Source of the DNA: Escherichia phage vB_EcoM_CRJP21
Sequence record: OQ708376.1
Direction: 5' to 3' (one strand)
Length of the DNA: 64,000 nucleotides
The translations under genes and the position numbers were made by a program. Below the pieces are notes generated by a model that was not told where the DNA came from, did not search any database, and worked only from the letters and a program-made list of their open reading frames with translations. Shown here in pieces: positions 3,061-42,753 of this stretch (positions are counted from its first letter, which is position 1; each line of letters starts with the position of its first letter).

Positions 3061-3324
3061 ATGAATATTAAAGATAGATTACAATTACTGTACACACTTG
3101 AACAGGCTGCTTATGATCTTGTTCGAAAAATCTCAGATGAACTACCTAAAGGAACTAAAGTTCGTGTACGTGAGATGAATTATTTTTCTGGAGTAATTGA
3201 AGAACAAGTACTAACAGTGAATAAAGTAACATACTATGAATCTGAGTTGTCTATTCAGTGTGAATCTGATGATGGATTAATATCATATTATGGAACTGAT
3301 GTAGATATAGAGGTAATAAAATGA
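3061..3324 (+). CDS. hypothetical small protein
   Basis: ATG at 3061 after GGTGGA; track ORF 3016-3324. Confidence 0.45.
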   Translation: MNIKDRLQLLYTLEQAAYDLVRKISDELPKGTKVRVREMNYFSGVIEEQVLTVNKVTYYESELSIQCESDDGLISYYGTDVDIEVIK

Positions 3325-4463
3325 CCCTTTTGCAAATATATGAAGATTTAATGCACTTATGTAATACAAACGATGCATTCTTTTATGTGGATCATAAAAG
3401 TCCTGCTGGTGGCACGTATCGTGTATTCAGTTATCGTCTAGCATCATACACTGATTTCATGCAACCAAATGCGTTGGAAACCCGTGGCTCTATGTGGGAA
3501 ATTGATGAAGAAGGTGACATGATACGTTGTGCAGCACGTACAATGAAAAAGTTCTTCAATGCTTACGAGAATCCTGCTACAATGTTCCCTGCTAACACCA
3601 CATGCGATGACATTGCGGTAGTGATGCCTAAGTTGGATGGCTCGATCATCAGTACTTATCGTGATAATGATGGTGAGATTCGTTGTAAATCACATACTGC
3701 ATTGTATTCTGACCATGCGATTAACAGTACTCGACTTATTAACGAGAACCAGAATTTGTATCAGTACATCGACGAAGCGGAACGTTTAGGTTACACAGTT
3801 AATATGGAGTATACAAGCCCAGAGTACCGAATTGTATTACCATATCAGGTAGAACAACTGTTTGTACTGAACGTTCGTCATCGTGTGAGTGGTGAGTTGC
3901 TATGTGGTAAAGCACTACGTGATAAGTTTCCATGTCTTGCACAGTACAGTACTAATATGACTGGAAAAGATATTCATCACACTTTTCCGGTACGAAATAC
4001 CTTCCGTGAAAGCGTGGAGGAAGTTCATAAAATGCTTGATATTGAGGGTTTTGTGTGCATCCTAAATAATGGGACAATGTGTAAAATAAAGACTGACTGG
4101 TACAGTTCATTACATCTTACAAAAGATAGTATTATTATTGATTCTCATTTATATGAAGCAGTATTAAATGGTTCAAGTGATGATTTAAAACAATTGTTCA
4201 GTACTGATGAATATGCTATGCAAAAGATATTAAGAATGGAACAATTGGTATTTTCGTGCTATAATGCATTACAAGATGAAGTAGAAAGCTTCGTCAAGGA
4301 ACACAAGCACTTGGAGCGAAAGGAATTCGCAATGAAGGTTCAGGAGTGTTTAACTAATGAACTGAATCGTCAGGGCTTGGCCTTTGCAATGTATAACAAT
4401 AAGAAAGTTGATTACAAAGAGACTCTTATAAAATACATGAAAATTGTACTAAAGGATTTTTAG
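3321..4463 (+). CDS. rnlA: RNA ligase 1 (T4 Rnl1-like)
   Basis: 380 aa; N-terminal region (FYVDHKSPAGGTYRVFSYRLASYTDF) matches T4 Rnl1 pattern; ligase motif I lysine in MPKLDGS. Confidence 0.85.
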   Translation: MTLLQIYEDLMHLCNTNDAFFYVDHKSPAGGTYRVFSYRLASYTDFMQPNALETRGSMWEIDEEGDMIRCAARTMKKFFNAYENPATMFPANTTCDDIAVVMPKLDGSIISTYRDNDGEIRCKSHTALYSDHAINSTRLINENQNLYQYIDEAERLGYTVNMEYTSPEYRIVLPYQVEQLFVLNVRHRVSGELLCGKALRDKFPCLAQYSTNMTGKDIHHTFPVRNTFRESVEEVHKMLDIEGFVCILNNGTMCKIKTDWYSSLHLTKDSIIIDSHLYEAVLNGSSDDLKQLFSTDEYAMQKILRMEQLVFSCYNALQDEVESFVKEHKHLERKEFAMKVQECLTNELNRQGLAFAMYNNKKVDYKETLIKYMKIVLKDF

Positions 4464-4493: not shown

Positions 4494-4748
4494 ATGGCTA
4501 AACCTAAGTATAAAAATGACGGTTCCCTTTCTCCGACTGAATTCAGGAAAATACAAGAAGAAATCGATGAATTACAGCACAAACGCTCAATGAAAGGTGT
4601 GAAGATAAGTAAGAAACGAATCGAGAATACCTTCGGATGTAGTAGTACTGAATACAAGAAGAAAAGGAAACCAAAAGGTGTTAAGCCGAGAATACATGAT
4701 GTAACTCGCTATACATCGAAACGTGAAAATAAATTTGATCCACTATAA
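4494..4748 (+). CDS. hypothetical basic protein
   Basis: ATG at 4494 after AAGGAG; lysine/arginine-rich 84 aa. Confidence 0.45.
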   Translation: MAKPKYKNDGSLSPTEFRKIQEEIDELQHKRSMKGVKISKKRIENTFGCSSTEYKKKRKPKGVKPRIHDVTRYTSKRENKFDPL

Positions 4749-4757
4749 GGAGTTCAT

Positions 4758-4988
4758 ATGAAAGTTGAAGTTCAGCATAGTATTGTTCAGGATATGTCAG
4801 TAGTTAAATTTCTTTCTCTGAAAGATTACTTCAGATGTATCAAGTTCCTAGAAGAATCTCAATTACAGTGGACCCCATTAAAGTACAGTTCATCCAATGA
4901 TACTGCTAGTATTCGTTGTGATGAATCTGTACTTGTGAAAATCTCCAAGCGATTTGGAGTAGGAAAAGTTAATGAGCACAGTAAGTGA
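4758..4988 (+). CDS. hypothetical protein
   Basis: 76-aa ORF. Confidence 0.45.
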   Translation: MKVEVQHSIVQDMSVVKFLSLKDYFRCIKFLEESQLQWTPLKYSSSNDTASIRCDESVLVKISKRFGVGKVNEHSK

Positions 4989-5559: not shown

Positions 5560-6492
5560 ATGCCAACTATTACACTAACAGTTGGATTACCTGGGTGTGG
5601 TAAAACCACATGGGCAGTTCAAGAAATTAAAAATGCCAAATCCAAGACTATCAACATCAACCGTGATGATATTCGTGAATCTATGGCTGGGTCACATGAT
5701 GCTTACAAATTCAACGATGCTAATGAGCAGTACGTAACTAATTTACAGTTCAGTGCAGCAAATTCAGCAGCAGAGAATGGTTGGAACATCATCATATCCG
5801 ATACAAACCTTAAACAACATTTCCGTAATCTCTGGAAAGTATGGGCTAAAGATAATGGTTATGATTACAAAGAAAAGAACTTCTATGATGATTTTGTACC
5901 TAATGAAGACCGTGGTGCAGATGTTCATGAATTCTTTAAGATTAAAGAGTTCGTAAAACTTTGTAAGAAATATAACCTCCAGCGTGAGCGTTCAGTACAA
6001 GATGATATCATTGACACAATGGCAGATACGTACTATTATAGTAAGGCATTGCACATTGGTTACTATGGTAATTCACGAGAAGCTGCTGTTATCGTTGATA
6101 TTGACGGTACTCTTGCTCATAAATGGGGTCGTAATCCTTACGATGAAAGTACTGTTCTTCAGGATACACCTGATGAAGAAGTTATTTTGTCTATTATCGC
6201 TGAAGCAGTTTTTCATAAACGCAAGATTATCGTCATGAGTGGGCGTACTGAAGGGTGTCGTGCTGATACCGAACAGTGGCTTAAGAATTGGGGTGTTCCT
6301 TACGATGCATTGTTTATGCGAGATATCGATGATAAACGTCCTGATGATGTTGTAAAATTCGACCTGTACATGAAAAATGTGGTTGATCATTACGATGTTA
6401 AAAAGGTATATGATGACCGAGCACAAGTCGTATTCATGTGGCGTAAGCTACTTGGTTTGAAAGTTTTTCAAGTTGCAGAAGGAAATTTCTAA
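5560..6492 (+). CDS. pseT: polynucleotide 5'-kinase / 3'-phosphatase (T4 Pnk-like)
   Basis: P-loop GLPGCGKTT, NINRDDIR, and HAD-type phosphatase motif VDIDGTL; colinear with T4 Pnk over full length. Confidence 0.85.
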   Translation: MPTITLTVGLPGCGKTTWAVQEIKNAKSKTININRDDIRESMAGSHDAYKFNDANEQYVTNLQFSAANSAAENGWNIIISDTNLKQHFRNLWKVWAKDNGYDYKEKNFYDDFVPNEDRGADVHEFFKIKEFVKLCKKYNLQRERSVQDDIIDTMADTYYYSKALHIGYYGNSREAAVIVDIDGTLAHKWGRNPYDESTVLQDTPDEEVILSIIAEAVFHKRKIIVMSGRTEGCRADTEQWLKNWGVPYDALFMRDIDDKRPDDVVKFDLYMKNVVDHYDVKKVYDDRAQVVFMWRKLLGLKVFQVAEGNF

Positions 6493-9670: not shown

Positions 9671-9921
9671 TGTTCAACAACGACTTATCACATTTGCGAT
9701 ATCTTATGTCTTTGGCTGATGATTTTATAAATGATCTGAAGCCAAAATATATTGGTCAAGAAGTACGATTAATAAACTCCAGAGGGTATGGAAAGTATAT
9801 TATTACTGATATGTATATTAGTGGTGGTGAATGGCGTTTTAAAATTAATACTTATCTTAAAGATGGTTCTTTTGCTGGAACACAAGTTACTAAACACACT
9901 AATATTATATGGTTGGAGTAA
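9670..9921 (+). CDS. hypothetical small protein (KY-G-V family)
   Basis: 83 aa; LKPKYIGQEVRLI. Confidence 0.45.
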   Translation: MFNNDLSHLRYLMSLADDFINDLKPKYIGQEVRLINSRGYGKYIITDMYISGGEWRFKINTYLKDGSFAGTQVTKHTNIIWLE

Positions 9922-9923
9922 TA

Positions 9924-10667
9924 ATGAAACATTTCTTAGAAGTAACCGTACCTGATGATAAAGATTTATACATTGTAGGTGATTTGCATGGTAATGGTAA
10001 ACTATGGGATGCTACAGTGAAAGAATTTGGTATTACACACAATGATTATGTTTTCAGTGTAGGTGATATTATCGACCGTGGAGAACAAAATTCAAAGCTC
10101 CTTTTTGAATTTTTGTTCGGAGAAAATCGTTACATGATTGCGGGTAATCATGAGATGATGTGCGTTGATTCGGAAACACTTCGAGATTGGTATCATTGTT
10201 GGATAAGTAATGGTGGTGATAAATTCCTTGATGAAGTTGGAGGAACAGGTATTCAATTCTTTCGTCAGTACTTGAAAGATCTCCCTATGATTATCCAAAT
10301 CAATCACCGAGGATTGAAGATTGGGTTAGTTCATGCTGGAGTTCCGTTGGAATATACAACATGGGAACGATTTGTTAATGGGACAAAATCACTTAGTGCT
10401 GATATAATTGATAAGTGCTTGTGGGATAGAAAAACATTCGATTATTGTAGAACTAATAATACATATTATGCACCTAAGTTAGATGGAGTGCATTGTGTCT
10501 TTAGTGGACATACAGCAGTTACAGACCCACTCATTTACGGTAATCGCATTTGGATTGATAGTCAGTTCTTGACGGGTGACTTAACTCTCGCTACTCCACA
10601 AAGTGGTGGAATGAGATACTTACGTAAAGAAAAAGATGAGTACTCATTCAATCGTTTCAAAAGGTAA
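9924..10667 (+). CDS. Ser/Thr protein phosphatase-family metallophosphatase
   Basis: GDLHGN, GDIIDRGEQ, GNHEMM motifs (PPP/ApaH-like); ATG 9924. Confidence 0.7.
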   Translation: MKHFLEVTVPDDKDLYIVGDLHGNGKLWDATVKEFGITHNDYVFSVGDIIDRGEQNSKLLFEFLFGENRYMIAGNHEMMCVDSETLRDWYHCWISNGGDKFLDEVGGTGIQFFRQYLKDLPMIIQINHRGLKIGLVHAGVPLEYTTWERFVNGTKSLSADIIDKCLWDRKTFDYCRTNNTYYAPKLDGVHCVFSGHTAVTDPLIYGNRIWIDSQFLTGDLTLATPQSGGMRYLRKEKDEYSFNRFKR

Positions 10668-10672
10668 TAATT

Positions 10673-10942
10673 ATGCATGATGTAGTTAAAAAATATTTGA
10701 ATGATAGATATATTATGAAAAAATCTATTAATTCTATCCTAAAAGACCATGCTAATCAAATACGTGAGATTCTATCAAATAAACTTATTGGTTGTTCAGT
10801 TGAGTTCAACTACAAAAAGAATGTCGTGAAGATTGGAGTTATTAAACGTGTAGTTGCTGTTTATGACCAAAATGTATATGTTGAAATTGAATATGATGGT
10901 AAATTATCACAATTAAGTACTGAAGATTTAACATTTTTATAA
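10673..10942 (+). CDS. hypothetical small protein
   Basis: 89-aa ORF. Confidence 0.45.
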   Translation: MHDVVKKYLNDRYIMKKSINSILKDHANQIREILSNKLIGCSVEFNYKKNVVKIGVIKRVVAVYDQNVYVEIEYDGKLSQLSTEDLTFL

Positions 10943-10952
10943 GGAAATAGAA

Positions 10953-11180
10953 ATGAAAGTAATTCAAGTTATGGTAGAAAAATACCAAACTGAAGATGGT
11001 CGTATTTTTGATTCAGCTAAACAAGCTGAACACCATGAACGTATTATTTCGGGTGCACGTAAAGTATGTCCTACATGTAATGGAACACAACAAGTACCGT
11101 CAGAAGATTACCGCAGCTTTTATGCTTGTCCACACTGTGATGGGAAAGGCTACGTAGAAAAACAAGAGGTATGGAAATGA
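10953..11180 (+). CDS. zinc-ribbon small protein
   Basis: CPTCNG ... CPHCDGKG, two CxxC pairs. Confidence 0.45.
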   Translation: MKVIQVMVEKYQTEDGRIFDSAKQAEHHERIISGARKVCPTCNGTQQVPSEDYRSFYACPHCDGKGYVEKQEVWK

Positions 11181-11590
11181 AATTGTATTGTTTAACTAAT
11201 ATGTACTGCCAAGGTGTCCAAGCTGGTATTCAAGCATTCCATGCTGGTGTTAAACTAATTAAAGAATATGAAGGTACTGCTTTCAGTACTATTATTGATG
11301 AATGGTACTATGAACACGAAACTATTGTAGTACTAAATGCTGGTGGACATGATAAGTTAAATTTTTATTATAACAACCTTAGCAAACAGGGAAAAGTTCC
11401 GTTTGCCAAATTCAATGAAGCTGGATTGAATGATGCTATTACCTGTGTAGCAGTACTGTGTACGTCTGAAATGATTGAAGACATGGCTGTTATGCGTATG
11501 AATCTTCCTGCTGGTGATCAACTAATGCAAGTAAAATATGGTGCATTGTTTGACACATTAAAAGCAATCAGCACAATGAGGACTATTTGA
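11171..11590 (+). CDS. possible PTH2-like (peptidyl-tRNA hydrolase 2 fold) protein
   Basis: spacing pattern of conserved Gly/Ala/His/Asp positions resembles PTH2; assignment by eye only. Confidence 0.35.
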   Translation: MEMKLYCLTNMYCQGVQAGIQAFHAGVKLIKEYEGTAFSTIIDEWYYEHETIVVLNAGGHDKLNFYYNNLSKQGKVPFAKFNEAGLNDAITCVAVLCTSEMIEDMAVMRMNLPAGDQLMQVKYGALFDTLKAISTMRTI

Positions 11591-12789
11591 TGGATTTTCC
11601 AGAGAAGTTATTTGTTGCACGTTCCTATGTAAACCACAACCAAGTTGATGGTTTTATTATCGATGCAACAAAATCACATACAAAAGCGTTTGAAACAAAG
11701 AAAGAGAGAGCAGAGTACTGGGCAAAGAAGAACAATCTTCCATCGTTATATATTGACAACGTTCCAACTACGGGATTTTGTGTAGTTGATAAATTAACAA
11801 CTCATGCACGAGAAACATATTTCACGATCCGTCACCCAGAAGGATTTGAATTTATGATTAGTGCCAAAAACATGAATGATTTAATTATCAATAACGATAT
11901 AATCAAAGGTGTTTTTGTAGACCCAATGTTTTTCAACAATAACTTAGAATTAATTAATGGTAAAACAAAAACGTTTGCTAAGTTAGTTGAAAAAGAAAAT
12001 AAAAAAGAACAACAAAAAGAAACTGTAGCAGGTCTTAAAGTTGGTGATGGTTTCACTTATCTCAAAGAAGATTACTATTACTGCGGTAAAGTTCATGCAA
12101 TTTGTATAAAGAAAACTAAAGAATTTGCATACCCCGACAAAAGTTCTGTTTATCATTTACTTTTCAACAGTACTCGTGGAACTTATGCATTGAATCAACG
12201 TTTGGATAATTACAATCTGGAACCTCGTGCACTCTTGAATAAGAAGACTACGGCAGATGAAGAAATTAAACTTGCTAATGATTTTTGGCAAAGCTATAGA
12301 ACAAACAGACATAACCCATTAGGTGAATCTAACATTCCAGTACTGGTACACAATAAATCATTTAAAGCAAAAGACCTAAAAATTAAATATGAAGAAATAA
12401 ATGTTGATGATCTTATGAATAATGGACGTTTCAACGAGAACGTACCATTTATGACTAAAGATAATGAACAAACATATCGCGTATTTTTTGGTGTAAGTAA
12501 TAATACAACGCGTAGTTATTATGGGCGTAGTGGAGATTATAATATCCATTATAATGATAAATTTGAACGCTTTAGTGCATATCCAGTTCAAATTGATGAT
12601 AATGGGATTATGGTAATGGATGTTGATATTAATGAACACTCATCATTTAGTACATGGAATGGCTATCGTTCCCCATTCTTCCCACCAAATGAACGCAAAA
12701 CATCAAGTTCTCGTTACTACCAAGATAAGCCGTGTCACGTTCAACTATCAATTAGTAATCCACTTTATATTGGAAAGTATTATCTATAA
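11587..12789 (+). CDS. hypothetical protein
   Basis: 400-aa ORF, no recognised motif. Confidence 0.5.
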   Translation: MMDFPEKLFVARSYVNHNQVDGFIIDATKSHTKAFETKKERAEYWAKKNNLPSLYIDNVPTTGFCVVDKLTTHARETYFTIRHPEGFEFMISAKNMNDLIINNDIIKGVFVDPMFFNNNLELINGKTKTFAKLVEKENKKEQQKETVAGLKVGDGFTYLKEDYYYCGKVHAICIKKTKEFAYPDKSSVYHLLFNSTRGTYALNQRLDNYNLEPRALLNKKTTADEEIKLANDFWQSYRTNRHNPLGESNIPVLVHNKSFKAKDLKIKYEEINVDDLMNNGRFNENVPFMTKDNEQTYRVFFGVSNNTTRSYYGRSGDYNIHYNDKFERFSAYPVQIDDNGIMVMDVDINEHSSFSTWNGYRSPFFPPNERKTSSSRYYQDKPCHVQLSISNPLYIGKYYL

Positions 12790-12800
12790 AGGAATATACA

Positions 12801-14219
12801 ATGAGCATTTTAGCAATTCTTGAAAGCATTAAAAATACTAGCAGTACACTAGGCAAAAAAGCTATTCTTGAACAAAATAAAGATAATGTAACTTTACAAA
12901 AAGTACTGAAATATACTCTAGACCCTTCTATCGTTAGTGGCTATAAGAAGCTCCCTGCCGCTGATGACGTATATCAACATATGACGTTAGATGAAGCAAT
13001 TGATAAGCTAGAATGCATTTACAAGCGTGATGTGACAGGAAATGCGGGGCGTGATTTCATTGCTTCAGTACTGGGTTCTGTATCTGAAGATGATCAGGAA
13101 GTTCTCCGTAAAATGCTTACTAAAAACCTTGATTGTGGTATTCAAGAAAAGAACTGCAATGATGTATTTGGTAAAGGCTTTATTAAAGACGAACCATATA
13201 TGCGTTGTTCTTTGATTGACAAAAAGACTGCAAAGAACATCAACTTCAAAGATTATGGTTACGCTATATCAGAAGTGAAAATGGATGGTCAGTACTTGAA
13301 CCACGTTGTTATTAATGGTTCATTAACTTCTACATCCCGTAATGGTAAACTATACGACTTCCTGGGTTGTCGTGATGGTGAGATGGCAGGTCTTGCTCAC
13401 ATCATCCAAAGTAAAGATGAACGTTTTAGTAGTGGTGTGGTCTTTATGGGGGAAGGTGTAGTACTGGACAATGATGGGGAAACCATTCTCCCACGCACTA
13501 CTGGCAACGGTATAATTCAGAAAGCTGGTAAAGATAGCATCAGTCAGAATGAAGCAATGCGTACTGTATTCGTTCTATGGGATGTTGTTCCATATGATGC
13601 ATTTTGTGAAGGTGTATGGGATGTAAAACGTAAAGAACGTCGCGAGATCTTAGTAGATGCAATTAACGAACTCAATAGTGATTTTGTTCGTATGGTTGGA
13701 TTCCGTAAAGTTCTAAACATCAAAGAAGCATTTGAGTACAATAGTGAACTAATGAACGAAGGTGAAGAGGGTTCAGTACTGAAATGTGAAGATGGTATCT
13801 GGAAATCTCACACTTCTCCGAAGCAGTTGAAAATGAAATTGAAAATGCAACTAGACTTGCGTATTGTTGGTTTCAATGAAGGTGAAGGTAAACGTAAAGG
13901 AAGCCTAGGTTCTTTACAACTGGAAAGTGCTTGTGGTTCATTGAAAGTTAATGTGGGTACTGGTATCAAAGAGAAAGATGCTGAATGGACATTTAAAACC
14001 ATTTGGGAAAGAATGCAAGAACTTATTGGTAAAGTGGTTACAGTTGAGTGTAATGACATTGTATTCGAGAAGCGTACTGGTGAGCCATCACTGTTCTTAC
14101 CAGTGTTTATTGAATTTAGATTTGACAAAAACACTTGTGACGACTATACTCGTATTTTAGAAATTCGTGATAGTGCTGTTGAGGTGTTCTCAAACAGTAT
14201 CATTGAATCACTTGGCTAA
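12801..14219 (+). CDS. 30: ATP-dependent DNA ligase (T4 gp30-like)
   Basis: N-terminus ILAILESIKNTSSTLGKKAILEQNKDN parallels T4 ligase; adenylation motif KMDGQ. Confidence 0.85.
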   Translation: MSILAILESIKNTSSTLGKKAILEQNKDNVTLQKVLKYTLDPSIVSGYKKLPAADDVYQHMTLDEAIDKLECIYKRDVTGNAGRDFIASVLGSVSEDDQEVLRKMLTKNLDCGIQEKNCNDVFGKGFIKDEPYMRCSLIDKKTAKNINFKDYGYAISEVKMDGQYLNHVVINGSLTSTSRNGKLYDFLGCRDGEMAGLAHIIQSKDERFSSGVVFMGEGVVLDNDGETILPRTTGNGIIQKAGKDSISQNEAMRTVFVLWDVVPYDAFCEGVWDVKRKERREILVDAINELNSDFVRMVGFRKVLNIKEAFEYNSELMNEGEEGSVLKCEDGIWKSHTSPKQLKMKLKMQLDLRIVGFNEGEGKRKGSLGSLQLESACGSLKVNVGTGIKEKDAEWTFKTIWERMQELIGKVVTVECNDIVFEKRTGEPSLFLPVFIEFRFDKNTCDDYTRILEIRDSAVEVFSNSIIESLG

Positions 14220-14238
14220 ACACTTATAGGAGGTAATT

Positions 14239-15030
14239 ATGAAATTTGTTGTAACGTCTGACGTACACGGTGGTACTGATTACCTCCATAGTGGTGATTA
14301 CAGTGATACAGTACTGATTATTGCTGGGGACTTCGATGAAGTTAAACGCAGTCGTTACCGTACTGGTATAGAATCACTATGTAAGCAGTTTAAGAATGTA
14401 GTACTGGTTCCTGGCAATCATGAATATTATGGTTCCAATATCCACAAAACGCATAAAGTACTGTCCGATATGCAAGATGAGATTCCTAATTTCATCTTTT
14501 TGCAAAACAAATTTGTATGGCTGGATGGAGTACTGCTTGTTGGTAGTACTCTGTGGACAGACTTCGATAAAGGTAATTCTTTGACGAAGTTTGATGCTCG
14601 TCTGAAGATGAACGATTACAAACATATCCGTCATGGAACAACATCAGAGCCTTGGCGTAAGAAACTGACACCAGATGATACTGAGTTTATGCATCACAAA
14701 GATAAACAATTTATCAAAAATTCTATTGACACAGTTCGCTTTATGCATGATAATGATTTCAAGGTCATCGTGGTTACCCATCACGCACCAAGTTATCAAA
14801 GTGTTTCACCAAAATATAAAAATGATTCACTGAATGGTTGTTACTGTTCCGATATGGATCAGTACATTGAAGATTTGGGTGCTGATGTTTGGATTCATGG
14901 TCATGTTCATAGTAGTTTTGACTACCACATTGGTAAGACACGTATCATTTGTAATCCACGAGGCTATGAATCATACAGTGGAGCTTGTGAGAATTTTGAT
15001 TACAATCCTAAATTTGTATTTGAAATTTAA
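14239..15030 (+). CDS. calcineurin-like metallophosphoesterase
   Basis: SDVHGG, GDFDE, GNHEYYG, THHAP, GHVH motifs. Confidence 0.65.
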   Translation: MKFVVTSDVHGGTDYLHSGDYSDTVLIIAGDFDEVKRSRYRTGIESLCKQFKNVVLVPGNHEYYGSNIHKTHKVLSDMQDEIPNFIFLQNKFVWLDGVLLVGSTLWTDFDKGNSLTKFDARLKMNDYKHIRHGTTSEPWRKKLTPDDTEFMHHKDKQFIKNSIDTVRFMHDNDFKVIVVTHHAPSYQSVSPKYKNDSLNGCYCSDMDQYIEDLGADVWIHGHVHSSFDYHIGKTRIICNPRGYESYSGACENFDYNPKFVFEI

Positions 15031-41122: not shown

Positions 41123-41524
41123 ATGACTACAGTTGATGATATCTATAGCACTATACGCAATATGAGTACAGATAGAAAAGTATTTGGCGATAAAGAAAAA
41201 TCTAAGTGTTATGGTATTGATTCTTTTGATATAATTTCTTATGAGTACAATACAAGTGGAAATAGTTCACTGAATATCGTCTGTCCTCGTGATCCAGAAA
41301 ATAATTTTATGTATGTTGAAATTAATAATGATGGAATGTTTTTTACAAAAGTTTTAAAAGGTGGAATTAATTACGAACCTATTGAATGTATGAATGAAGA
41401 AACTTTCTTTCAAGAAGATACAATTATCAATTTAGGTTTTAGTTTTGATGATTATAAAACATTAGAACATGACTTTAATCGTTATTATAATGGTTTCTTA
41501 AAGGAGTTAACAATTTATCTATGA
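41123..41524 (+). CDS. hypothetical protein
   Basis: 133-aa ORF. Confidence 0.5.
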   Translation: MTTVDDIYSTIRNMSTDRKVFGDKEKSKCYGIDSFDIISYEYNTSGNSSLNIVCPRDPENNFMYVEINNDGMFFTKVLKGGINYEPIECMNEETFFQEDTIINLGFSFDDYKTLEHDFNRYYNGFLKELTIYL

Positions 41525-42753
41525 ATAACCAATATATTGAACAAACAATAGTGAAACACTTGGCTGGGTCACAAGCCTACGGAACCAGTACACCTGAAAG
41601 TGATACTGATTATCGTGGTATTTTTCTTGCTAATAAAGAATTTATTCTTACACCCTTCTATAAGGTCAAAGAGGTAGCTGATAAAAGCGAAGAAGATACT
41701 AAATTCTATGAGTTGAATCAGTATTTAAAATTATACACTGAAGCTAACCCTAATATTCTTGAATCACTTTGGGTTGAACCTGAACACATTGTTGAAAGTA
41801 CTGAAATTTATGACTATCTTCGTTCATTTAACCAAAAACTTCTTAGTTCCAAGATTGCATTTTCATACACTGGATATGCATATAATCAGATTAAGCGTAT
41901 GACAAATCATCACGGTTGGATGGATAAAGAGCGTATTGCTGAAAAACGATTAAATGAGATTTTAGAAGAACACCCAGTCGATGAGGTTCTTGCGTGGATG
42001 TATGATTCATTTCCACAATATCTTGTTGAACGTTTAGATACATCGAACTTACATCCATTTAATGCTAAAAAGATTGATTTTGAAAAATATATGCGTGATA
42101 CGTCATTGCAGTTAGTTTCGAAAAATCCATTAAAGCAATATCATTTTGTAAGATTAGTGCATAACTACACTACTGATAAAATTCTAGATCGTGATTTCAA
42201 TTTATTGAATTTTAATAATGGCTATGAACTAATTCATTACGGAGAAAACATTTTTGCGATTATTAAAAATCCGAATGAAAGTACTATCAATGGTGATGGT
42301 TCATTGCGTTATTTTTCTAAAGAGCGTAGTACTGAAGAGTTGAAAACCAAACCAGAACTGATTGTCAAATTTAACGAAAAAGAATATCAGGAAAATAGTG
42401 AGAATAGGAAAAGTTATCATAAATGGAAAGAAAATCGTAATGCCAAACGTGCTATTTTAGAATCACAGCACGGATACGATTGTAAACATGCTATGCACAC
42501 AATCCGACTTTTGAATAGTGCAGAAGAAGCATTACAAAGTGGTATTATTCAAGTTAAACGTCCTGATGCACAAATGCTGATGGATATTCGCAATGGTAAG
42601 TGGAAATATGAAGAAGTATTAGAATACTTTGATGATAAAGTAAAATATATTCGTGATGTTCTATATAAGAAATCTGTACTTCCTAAAAAACCAAACATCA
42701 AATTAGCATCAAAAATTATCATTGATATTAGAGAAATGCAATGGTATAAGTAA
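41521..42753 (+). CDS. Pol-beta superfamily nucleotidyltransferase
   Basis: N-terminal GSQAYGTSTPESDTDYRGIF fits GS...SDxD nucleotidyltransferase signature. Confidence 0.55.
   Translation: MNNQYIEQTIVKHLAGSQAYGTSTPESDTDYRGIFLANKEFILTPFYKVKEVADKSEEDTKFYELNQYLKLYTEANPNILESLWVEPEHIVESTEIYDYLRSFNQKLLSSKIAFSYTGYAYNQIKRMTNHHGWMDKERIAEKRLNEILEEHPVDEVLAWMYDSFPQYLVERLDTSNLHPFNAKKIDFEKYMRDTSLQLVSKNPLKQYHFVRLVHNYTTDKILDRDFNLLNFNNGYELIHYGENIFAIIKNPNESTINGDGSLRYFSKERSTEELKTKPELIVKFNEKEYQENSENRKSYHKWKENRNAKRAILESQHGYDCKHAMHTIRLLNSAEEALQSGIIQVKRPDAQMLMDIRNGKWKYEEVLEYFDDKVKYIRDVLYKKSVLPKKPNIKLASKIIIDIREMQWYK

Follow-up and report, generated by a model that had tools for sequence, protein, structure and literature searches.

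The 64,000-nucleotide stretch of Escherichia phage vB_EcoM_CRJP21 considered here (sequence record OQ708376.1; "the window" denotes this whole stretch) carries, within a long run of co-directional genes, an uninterrupted open reading frame (ORF) at 11171..11590 on the plus strand, which encodes 139 amino acids (aa). Its product is a member of the PTH2 (peptidyl-tRNA hydrolase 2) superfamily by fold and by sequence profile. The predicted model and the profile matches point to a small soluble enzyme of a divergent and apparently phage-restricted subfamily, PHROG 3668. The other two plus-strand frames over the same interval contain 14 and 17 stops. The coding sequence and the element that precedes it by a few nucleotides (nt) are as follows.

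11177..11590, plus strand: coding sequence of the divergent PTH2-fold protein, 137 aa; an upstream in-frame ATG at 11171 gives 139 aa
11164..11169, plus strand: Shine-Dalgarno-like AAGAGG, 7 nt before the ATG at 11177 and 1 nt before 11171

The second ATG, at 11177, is likely the true start. It is favoured by the spacing of this ribosome-binding site, by an ATGA coupling motif in which the ATG overlaps the TGA stop (11178-11180) of the 75-aa gene upstream, by the beginnings of the PTH2-like homologs (MKLY or MRxY, the 137-aa form starting with MKLY) and by the annotation of ph0011. Public records differ on this point, as ph0011 has the 137-aa form and PBECO4 the 139-aa form. At the other end, the TGA stop (11588-11590) runs into the following gene, whose ATG starts at 11590 (TGATG). 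Residue numbers of the PTH2-like protein follow the 139-aa form, and those of canonical Pth2 follow the S. solfataricus enzyme. Over 9900-14300, the sequence shares 99.8% identity with Escherichia phage vB_EcoM_phAPEC6 and 98.5% with PBECO4, and the window comes from an Asteriusvirus jumbo phage, as do these. Comparison with the ph0011 ortholog by the Nei-Gojobori method gave 24 synonymous and 14 non-synonymous differences and a ratio of non-synonymous to synonymous rates (dN/dS) of 0.12. Purifying selection acts on this ORF, a genuine protein-coding gene, and the original prediction, which had placed a gene at 11171-11590, was right in this respect.

For the single sequence, the match to the Pfam family PTH2 (PF01981) is marginal (E 8.9e-5, 23.1 bits with a gathering score of 23.0), no rival family being found, and phmmer returned zero matches among PDB sequences, which means that the relationship is visible only via profiles or structure. 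A score right at the threshold and an empty phmmer search are what could be said for a chance match to PTH2, or for a non-gene. Profile comparisons gave a different answer. The protein matches PHROG 3668 ("hydrolase") with E 9.7e-45 over residues 1-138 and scores 149.9 bits with its own family profile. All the PHROG 3668 motifs are present in it, namely N-x-Y...[QH]-x-G-I-Q-x-x-H, H-K/E-T-x-x-x-L-N-G/A-G, F-x-E and the Thr of strand 4. Fifty-nine of the 150 aligned family members match Pfam PTH2 independently (best E 2.5e-8), and no other family recurs. Alignment of the family profile with a profile of 48 canonical archaeal Pth2 sequences by hhalign gave a probability of 96.2% (E 2.6e-9). On the Pfam E-value, the 59 independent members and the hhalign result, the PTH2 resemblance that had been noted earlier by eye exceeds chance.

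The AlphaFold2 (AF2) model, a monomer computed from an alignment of seven sequences, has a predicted local distance difference test score (pLDDT) of 87.7 and a predicted template-modelling score (pTM) of 0.83. It shows the alpha/beta fold of PTH2, a four-stranded mixed sheet flanked by helices, with an extra C-terminal helix predicted in addition. Pth2 itself is homodimeric (PMC11994314). In a Foldseek search of the PDB with this model, the top 12 matches were all Pth2 with a probability of 1.00, including those of S. solfataricus (1xty), A. fulgidus (3erj), M. jannaschii (2zv3), T. acidophilum (1rlk) and P. horikoshii (1wn2) and human Bit1 (1q7s). The match at rank 13 was again a PTH2 entry, the nuclear magnetic resonance model of AF2095 (1rzw, E 0.021), and the first unrelated fold appeared only at E 0.38. 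Fold matches in BFVD fell in two tiers, family members with template-modelling (TM) scores of 0.68-0.82 and canonical viral Pth2 at about 0.5-0.57. Thus the check by AlphaFold and Foldseek that had been proposed for the PTH2 assignment returned the Pth2 fold and not an unrelated one. Selection, Pfam, hhalign and fold results together refute a chance ORF or a chance match, and we regard the probability of either as negligible. Two further memberships were considered and discarded. For DUF2000, the structural score of 2gax lies below those of Pth2 and none of the 150 family members has a Pfam DUF2000 match; for Pth1 (PF01195), there is neither a Pfam nor a fold match.

Across the 48 canonical Pth2 sequences, R9, D11, G17, K18, Q22, A24, H25, A26, W49, K56 and D86 are invariant, as are G88, T90, P94, G95, T96, T98, G101, G103, P104 and L117. 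Three parts of the phage protein are of interest in comparison with them.

11219..11248, plus strand: residues 17-26, with the segment Q17-A-G-I-Q21-A-F-H24, placed by family alignments, the hhalign register and MAFFT
11417..11443, plus strand: E83-A-G-L-N87-D-A-I-T91, in which E83 aligns with D86 and N87 with Thr90, the loop being 4 residues shorter
11507..11575, plus strand: extra C-terminal helix, residues 113-135, from AF2 secondary structure and alignments; none in canonical Pth2

Q21 and H24, invariant in 150-156 family sequences, are the counterparts of the canonical Q-x-x-H (Q22/H25) on helix 1. W45, which precedes strand 2, and T91, on strand 4, are kept as well. The catalytic Asp site is acidic in 156/156 sequences, with Glu in 155 and Asp in one; the side chain of Glu83 is one methylene longer than that of the canonical Asp, the acidic function being kept. 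The position of canonical K18 is residue 17, in a register obtained by extending the Q-x-x-H alignment without gaps and from one HMMER alignment (to 24bt) and MAFFT, and it is occupied by Gln in 120/156 sequences (77%) and by His in 33/156 (21%), the window protein having Gln in place of the canonical Lys. This invariant Lys was reportedly assigned a catalytic role by Fromant et al. in 2005. Other canonical invariants are also lost: R9 has become hydrophobic (L/F8), D11 is N10 (93%), K56 is hydrophobic (I/V52) and T90 is N87 (65%). The loop after the acidic residue is shortened, P94-G95 is not kept and the G101-x-G103-P104 turn is gone. For yeast Pth2, an impaired hydrolase activity is described for D174N, a mutation of the catalytic site (bioRxiv 10.1101/2024.11.20.624519), and D174 would, from the length offset, be D86 of S. 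solfataricus.

The phage family has near-invariant residues of its own, which are Y6, N10, Y12, G19, H49, T51, the N-G/A-G turn, F81 and E83. Its most conserved polar residues (N10, Y12, Q/H17, Q21, H24, H49, T51, E83, N87 and T91) map to the strand-loop-helix segments that bear the catalytic residues of canonical Pth2, and because they fall on these segments we infer an active site at the canonical position but re-tooled. Judged by its residues and profiles, the window protein lies outside canonical Pth2. The Pth2 equivalog TIGR00283 does not match it, and the canonical-like phage copy from Asteriusvirus A4 (A4_114) scores 64.9 on the Pth2 equivalog NF003314 of NCBIfam and 63 on TIGR00283.

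The function we prefer for this protein, to which we give about an even chance, is that of a re-tooled tRNA 3'-ester hydrolase, with a specificity unlike that of canonical Pth2, which clears tRNA 3' ends for the repair toolkit of the phage. The substrates would be peptidyl-, N-acyl-aminoacyl- or aminoacyl-tRNA, in which such an enzyme would cleave the ester on the 3'-terminal adenosine. Glu83 would act as general base, and Gln/His17, His24 and Asn87 would position water and ester. The 3' ends of stalled, dropped-off, poisoned or damaged tRNAs would be freed in this way, and the tRNAs could then be reused or rebuilt by the T4 Rnl1-type RNA ligase, the T4 Pnkp-type polynucleotide kinase/phosphatase, the RlaP-family nucleotidyltransferase and the CCA-adding enzyme that are encoded in the window. 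With Lys, Arg, Asp and Thr gone from their canonical invariant positions, a catalytically dead PTH2-fold protein is also conceivable, one that would only bind a host protein or the acceptor end of tRNA. It might protect the 3' ends of tRNAs against toxins of the host or act as an inhibitor of a host factor, inhibition being a frequent role of the small proteins that phages make early. Such a pseudoenzyme is very unlikely in our judgement: Q21, H24, E83, T51, N10 and H49 are invariant or nearly so at active-site positions, a pattern typical of enzymes, and none of the 156 sequences lacks an acidic residue at the catalytic position.

A specificity of the re-tooled hydrolase distinct from that of canonical Pth2 is suggested by its active-site residues and also by a separate, canonical-like Pth2 in related jumbo phages. 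With a canonical archaeal Pth2 as tblastn query, at least 58 phage records were matched, including Atu_ph07, Myrna, phiM12 and XacN1, and the same query matched RaK2-like phages and Asteriusvirus A4 weakly. A4 gp114 and Muenster gp429 retain R-x-D-L, G-K, Q-x-x-H, K56 and the catalytic Asp. On the canonical profile these two proteins score 57-60 bits and the copies of phage contigs L017 and L013 about 85, as against 1-17 for the window family; on the family profile, the window family scores 92-156 bits and the canonical-like copies 5-13. When A4 gp114 served as query, 40 records with a canonical-like copy were found, at loci far from the divergent gene, and the carriers include RaK2, K64-1, Muenster, GAP32, CBB, Serratia BF, Erwinia Eneladusviruses, Yersinia fHe-Yen9 and Salmonella Munch, among others. 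The copy of CBB lies at 279,898-280,299, consistent with CBB_392. The "peptidyl-tRNA hydrolase" of the RaK2, CBB and GAP32 literature was considered as the counterpart of the window gene, and this was discarded, as it is the canonical-like paralog. Coordinates of this paralog on two contigs outside the window are given here.

2989-3399 of contig L010: canonical-like Pth2 paralog
2986-3399 of contig L011: canonical-like Pth2 paralog

Among Escherichia phages, the canonical-like copy was found only in A4 and EJP2; most RaK2-like jumbo phages have it. It is absent from PBECO4-, 121Q- and phAPEC6-type Asteriusviruses, the group of the window, and from the 64-kb window, which looks like a lineage-specific loss that left only the divergent family. 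RaK2-like phages, Mimasvirus, Eneladusvirus and several metagenomic phages carry both paralogs, which on metagenomic phage contigs may be as close as 0.2-3 kb. The retention of both copies argues that they are non-redundant. To judge from these alignments and scores, large phages hold two separable PTH2-fold families. On contig L017, a strong canonical PTH2 (96 bits) was observed 2.3 kb downstream of the divergent gene, and a protein with a YqeY domain (PF09424) is encoded at 4530-4958, about 1 kb upstream of the divergent gene. A relative of YqeY is the tail of GatB that binds tRNA. In another contig pair (L013/L014) the two PTH2 paralogs lie 2.6 kb apart.

It may be argued that the window protein is a plain phage isoenzyme of Pth2 that recycles dropped-off peptidyl-tRNA in infection and that its sequence differences are neutral drift. 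The PTH2 fold and the Pfam match, the retained Q-x-x-H and the acidic catalytic residue agree with this argument, public records already use the name peptidyl-tRNA hydrolase, and in PBECO4-type Asteriusviruses, which lack the canonical-like copy, the divergent protein could be the sole Pth2-type enzyme. Host Pth is limiting for some phages, as is known from the bar minigenes of lambda and pth(rap) mutants. Drift does not sit easily with substitutions that are fixed across the family, residue 17 being Gln or His and never Lys in the majority, position 83 being Glu in all but one sequence and residue 10 being Asn in 93%. Moreover, the reciprocal profiles split the two families cleanly (92-156 against 1-17 bits), both paralogs are kept in many phages, sometimes less than 3 kb apart, which argues against redundancy, and the NCBIfam equivalog score is far under its cut-off. 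We therefore consider a simple isoenzyme unlikely, and the coexistence with canonical-like Pth2 suggests that the protein is probably no simple Pth2 equivalent.

The divergent family was found by tblastn in 269 phage records. Among the jumbo phages these belong to Asteriusvirus, Alcyoneusvirus, Mimasvirus and Eneladusvirus, and the others include T4-like phages of Vibrio and Aeromonas, myophages of about 145 kb of Klebsiella, Cronobacter and Salmonella, and Barbavirus. A word-indexed protein search returned 6 close relatives, and an exhaustive HMMER search returned 1,278 clusters (50% identity) at E < 1e-3. A few records already name the family peptidyl-tRNA hydrolase, namely ph0011 ("peptidyl-tRNA hydrolase PTH2"), Muenster gp174, whose record carries the note "HHpred 2ZV3_G 97%", and PcCB7V; a UniProt protein of VH7D has the same name. 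PTH2 in jumbo phages was discussed in PMC7824862, PMC3622015 and PMC5259590; among this literature are a 2021 survey and the RaK2 and CBB genome papers, which mention Pth2. With these annotations and publications, the 269 family records and at least 58 records of the canonical type, the statement of the original prediction that such a protein would be unexpected in a phage does not hold.

Relatives of the family were found on 179 viral contigs (IMG/VR) as against 2 contigs of metagenome-assembled genomes (MAGs), and cellular genomes were scanned with one genome per species for about 185,000 bacterial and archaeal species. The query pattern covers the H-K-T-x-x-x-L-N-G-G core subgroup only, and the claim of phage restriction is limited to that subgroup, which appears essentially phage-restricted. 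One of the two MAG matches lies on a 330-kb contig, CAZFPB010000002.1, binned to a Pseudobdellovibrionaceae MAG; its size and the gene that it carries suggest that it may derive from a jumbo phage and have been binned wrongly with bacterial sequence. The sequence family and its annotation are already known; biologically, the protein represents an uncharacterised variant within an enzyme kind that is known.

The gene neighbourhood across phages was studied at 80 IMG/VR loci plus loci fetched earlier, whose ORFs were searched with profiles seeded from Pfam-verified proteins. De-replication of the loci at 60% identity left 69 lineages, and flanks of 8 kb were considered. In Barbavirus, Vibrio phage 496E54-1 and the Klebsiella phages of about 145 kb, the PTH2-like gene lies between the CCA-adding enzyme (PF01743) and RlaP (PF10127), and on other contigs a Pfam-confirmed Thg1 (PF04446) adjoins it. 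A tRNA- or RNA-repair enzyme is encoded within 8 kb in 34/69 lineages and within 2 kb in 22/69, the latter comprising the CCA-adding enzyme in 11 lineages, Thg1 in 9, RlaP in 6 and Rnl1 in 2. Within 500 nt, the CCA-adding enzyme, Thg1 or RlaP is found in 16/69 lineages, invariably on the same strand. The order is fixed as well, with the CCA-adding enzyme upstream (8/9) and Thg1 or RlaP downstream. Of 31 CCA-adding enzyme, Thg1 or RlaP genes in the 8-kb flanks, 20 lie within 500 nt (P = 3.6e-17 against placement that is uniform within the flanks). In 6 lineages the distance to a calcineurin-type phosphoesterase is at most 500 nt (for uniform placement, P = 1e-5). Comparable tightness was seen neither for Rnl1 nor for DNA ligase, which occurs within 8 kb in 11 lineages and has P = 0.51 against random placement in the flank. 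RlaP extends damaged RNAs at the 3'-OH by one or two nucleotides, and the restoration of repaired tRNA requires it (PMC12776372).

A more specific form of the re-tooled hydrolase we put forward as a tentative possibility, well short of an even chance. The protein would be a dedicated member of a tRNA acceptor-end repair cassette rather than a general Pth, with the CCA-adding enzyme or Thg1, RlaP and a calcineurin-type phosphoesterase as partners, and would strip acyl groups as a counter-defence enzyme. Glu, Gln or His, and Asn would replace Asp, Lys and Thr in its active site. It would remove aminoacyl, peptidyl or toxin-installed acyl groups from the 3' ends of damaged or poisoned tRNAs, N-acetyl-aminoacyl-tRNA from GNAT toxins being one example. 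Its specificity would not be that of the canonical Pth2 that many of these phages carry as well, and the stripped 3' ends would be rebuilt, so that tRNA-targeting host immunity would be countered.

In the window, the genes at the locus run in the order NinI-like phosphoesterase, two small genes, PTH2-like gene, 399-aa gene, DNA ligase and second metallophosphoesterase, an order that is kept in CBB and Muenster from the NinI-like gene to the second metallophosphoesterase. These neighbours and the tRNA-repair enzymes elsewhere in the window are listed below.

9909..10667, plus strand: NinI-like calcineurin-type phosphoesterase, Pfam Metallophos E 6e-11, PHROG 246; 504 nt upstream of the PTH2-like gene
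10953..11180, plus strand: 75-aa CxxC zinc-ribbon gene, Pfam Anti-TRAP and DnaJ_CXXCXGXG below cut-offs; PHROG 12574
11590..12789, plus strand: 399-aa gene, translationally coupled, PHROG 14061 E 4.5e-202
12801-14219: ATP-dependent DNA ligase, the window gene after the 399-aa gene
14239-15030, plus strand: second calcineurin-type metallophosphoesterase, which with 9909-10667 closes a bracket around the locus
3321..4463, plus strand: T4 Rnl1-type RNA ligase, Pfam RNA_lig_T4_1 and T4_Rnl1_C
5560..6492, plus strand: T4 Pnkp-type polynucleotide kinase/phosphatase, Pfam HAD_PNKP E 1.5e-43 and AAA_33
41521..42753, plus strand: RlaP-family nucleotidyltransferase, PF10127 E 6.4e-16; 410 aa, the domain covering only residues 13-131
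58537..59649, plus strand: CCA-adding tRNA nucleotidyltransferase, Pfam PolyA_pol and PolyA_pol_RNAbd

The 75-aa protein was observed to contain two CxxC pairs (CPTCNGT...CPHCDGKG), like the central zinc finger of DnaJ and Anti-TRAP (30.7 with a cut-off of 32), and some records label it "chaperone protein". Asteriusvirus, Alcyoneusvirus and Mimasvirus keep the 399-aa gene in its place after the PTH2-like gene, and its product is 46% identical to Muenster gp176 and 30% identical to CBB gp099. Pfam, PDB, NCBIfam and PADLOC gave no match for this protein, and its single-sequence AF2 model is unusable (pLDDT 31.9). A diverged RlaP-type nucleotidyltransferase was considered for it and discarded, as BLAST revealed no similarity. 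The NinI-like phosphoesterase is a possible partner of the PTH2-like protein. Work from the Shuman laboratory is said to have established that lambda-phosphatase-type domains in bacterial Pnkp heal 2',3'-cyclic and 3'-phosphate RNA ends; by analogy, the two "Ser/Thr phosphatases" of the window may serve in the healing of RNA ends. The 64-kb window was noted to contain a full set of tRNA repair enzymes, consisting of Rnl1, Pnkp, RlaP and the CCA-adding enzyme, and ARAGORN found zero tRNA genes in it. Counts from a promoter and terminator scan equalled the shuffle background, and operon boundaries were not found. PADLOC returned no match, and with this result nothing suggests a defence-system component.

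The original prediction had held that the protein would add a translation-rescue activity to the tRNA repair set. The link to tRNA repair is supported by the ordered linkage in 16/69 lineages and the four repair enzymes in the window, more strongly than that prediction could tell. The translation-rescue activity is unproven and the activity probably not canonical, since several canonical invariants are gone, the loop Lys among them, the equivalog score is 18.8 with a cut-off of 126, and the family coexists with a canonical-like Pth2.

The neighbours in the jumbo phages also bear on a hydrolase of PTH2 fold that acts on a substrate other than tRNA, such as an adduct at a nucleic-acid end or a small-molecule ester or amide, the surrounding genes being those of a general end-processing region. 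The NinI-like phosphoesterase, the 399-aa protein, the DNA ligase and the second metallophosphoesterase would all be in place there, ligase and metallophosphoesterase recur near the gene in the lineages counted above, and the canonical catalytic set is altered. We hold such a substrate to be quite improbable, if less so than a dead enzyme. The tightest and most ordered linkage is with the CCA-adding enzyme and Thg1, both specific for tRNA ends, the placement of DNA ligase is compatible with a random one by the P-value given above, and no Pfam match to DUF2000 or to any family other than PTH2 was obtained.

Several points weigh against a tRNA 3'-ester hydrolase of the kind that we prefer. R9, D11, K18, K56, T90 and GxGP are replaced or lost, and for this reason catalysis by the canonical mechanism is not assured; the score of 18.8 bits on NF003314 lies far from 126. 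The N-terminal strand and loop with the Lys position fall outside the local hhalign alignment, and the clustering of the active-site residues in three dimensions is deduced from the alignment. The nearest tRNA enzymes of the window are 4.7-6.7 kb off (Pnkp and Rnl1), and at 30-47 kb RlaP and the CCA-adding enzyme lie farther still. In 35 of the 69 lineages, the 8-kb flanks contain no repair enzyme, and phylogenetic non-independence of the lineages inflates the P-value of the synteny. In the literature searched, biochemistry of any phage PTH2-like protein was not found.

The assignment of the PTH2 fold in itself adds little, as PTH2-like genes of large phages have been published and some orthologs are annotated so. 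The possible importance lies in the distinction of a divergent, apparently phage-restricted family with an altered active site and an ordered linkage to enzymes of the tRNA terminus. If the protein does act on acylated or damaged tRNA ends, a deacylation step would be added to phage tRNA repair by Pnkp/Rnl1, the CCA-adding enzyme, Thg1 and RlaP, and the protein would become a concrete candidate for the means by which phages withstand toxins and defence systems directed at tRNA. As a caution for annotation, proteins of PHROG 3668 should not be named "peptidyl-tRNA hydrolase Pth2" as if they were equivalogs.

In comparison with archaeal and eukaryotic Pth2 (1xty, 1wn2 and human PTRH2/Bit1, 1q7s), the phage family has in common the Q-x-x-H, the Trp before strand 2, the acidic catalytic position and the Thr of strand 4. 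It differs in that the equivalent of Asp86 is Glu and R9, D11, K18, K56 and T90 are replaced, and it adds a C-terminal helix of about 25 residues and the invariants Y6, N10, Y12, H49, T51 and N-G-G of its own. The canonical-like phage Pth2 proteins (Escherichia phage A4 gp114, Klebsiella phage RaK2/Muenster gp429, Pectobacterium phage CBB_392, GAP32, Mycobacterium phage Myrna gp36, Sinorhizobium phiM12 and Xanthomonas XacN1) are of similar size, share the PTH2 fold and are carried by large myophages of the same kinds as the divergent family; one genome often holds both, at different loci. With DUF2000/Atu0240 (2gax), a bacterial PTH2-like fold whose function is uncharacterised, the window protein has 10% identity. 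Bacterial Pth1, represented by E. coli Pth, has an unrelated fold and the catalytic set His20/Asp93/Asn10. The reaction, hydrolysis of the peptidyl-tRNA ester, is possibly the same, and a hydrolase encoded by a phage would act in addition to the Pth1 of the host (PMC3488237).

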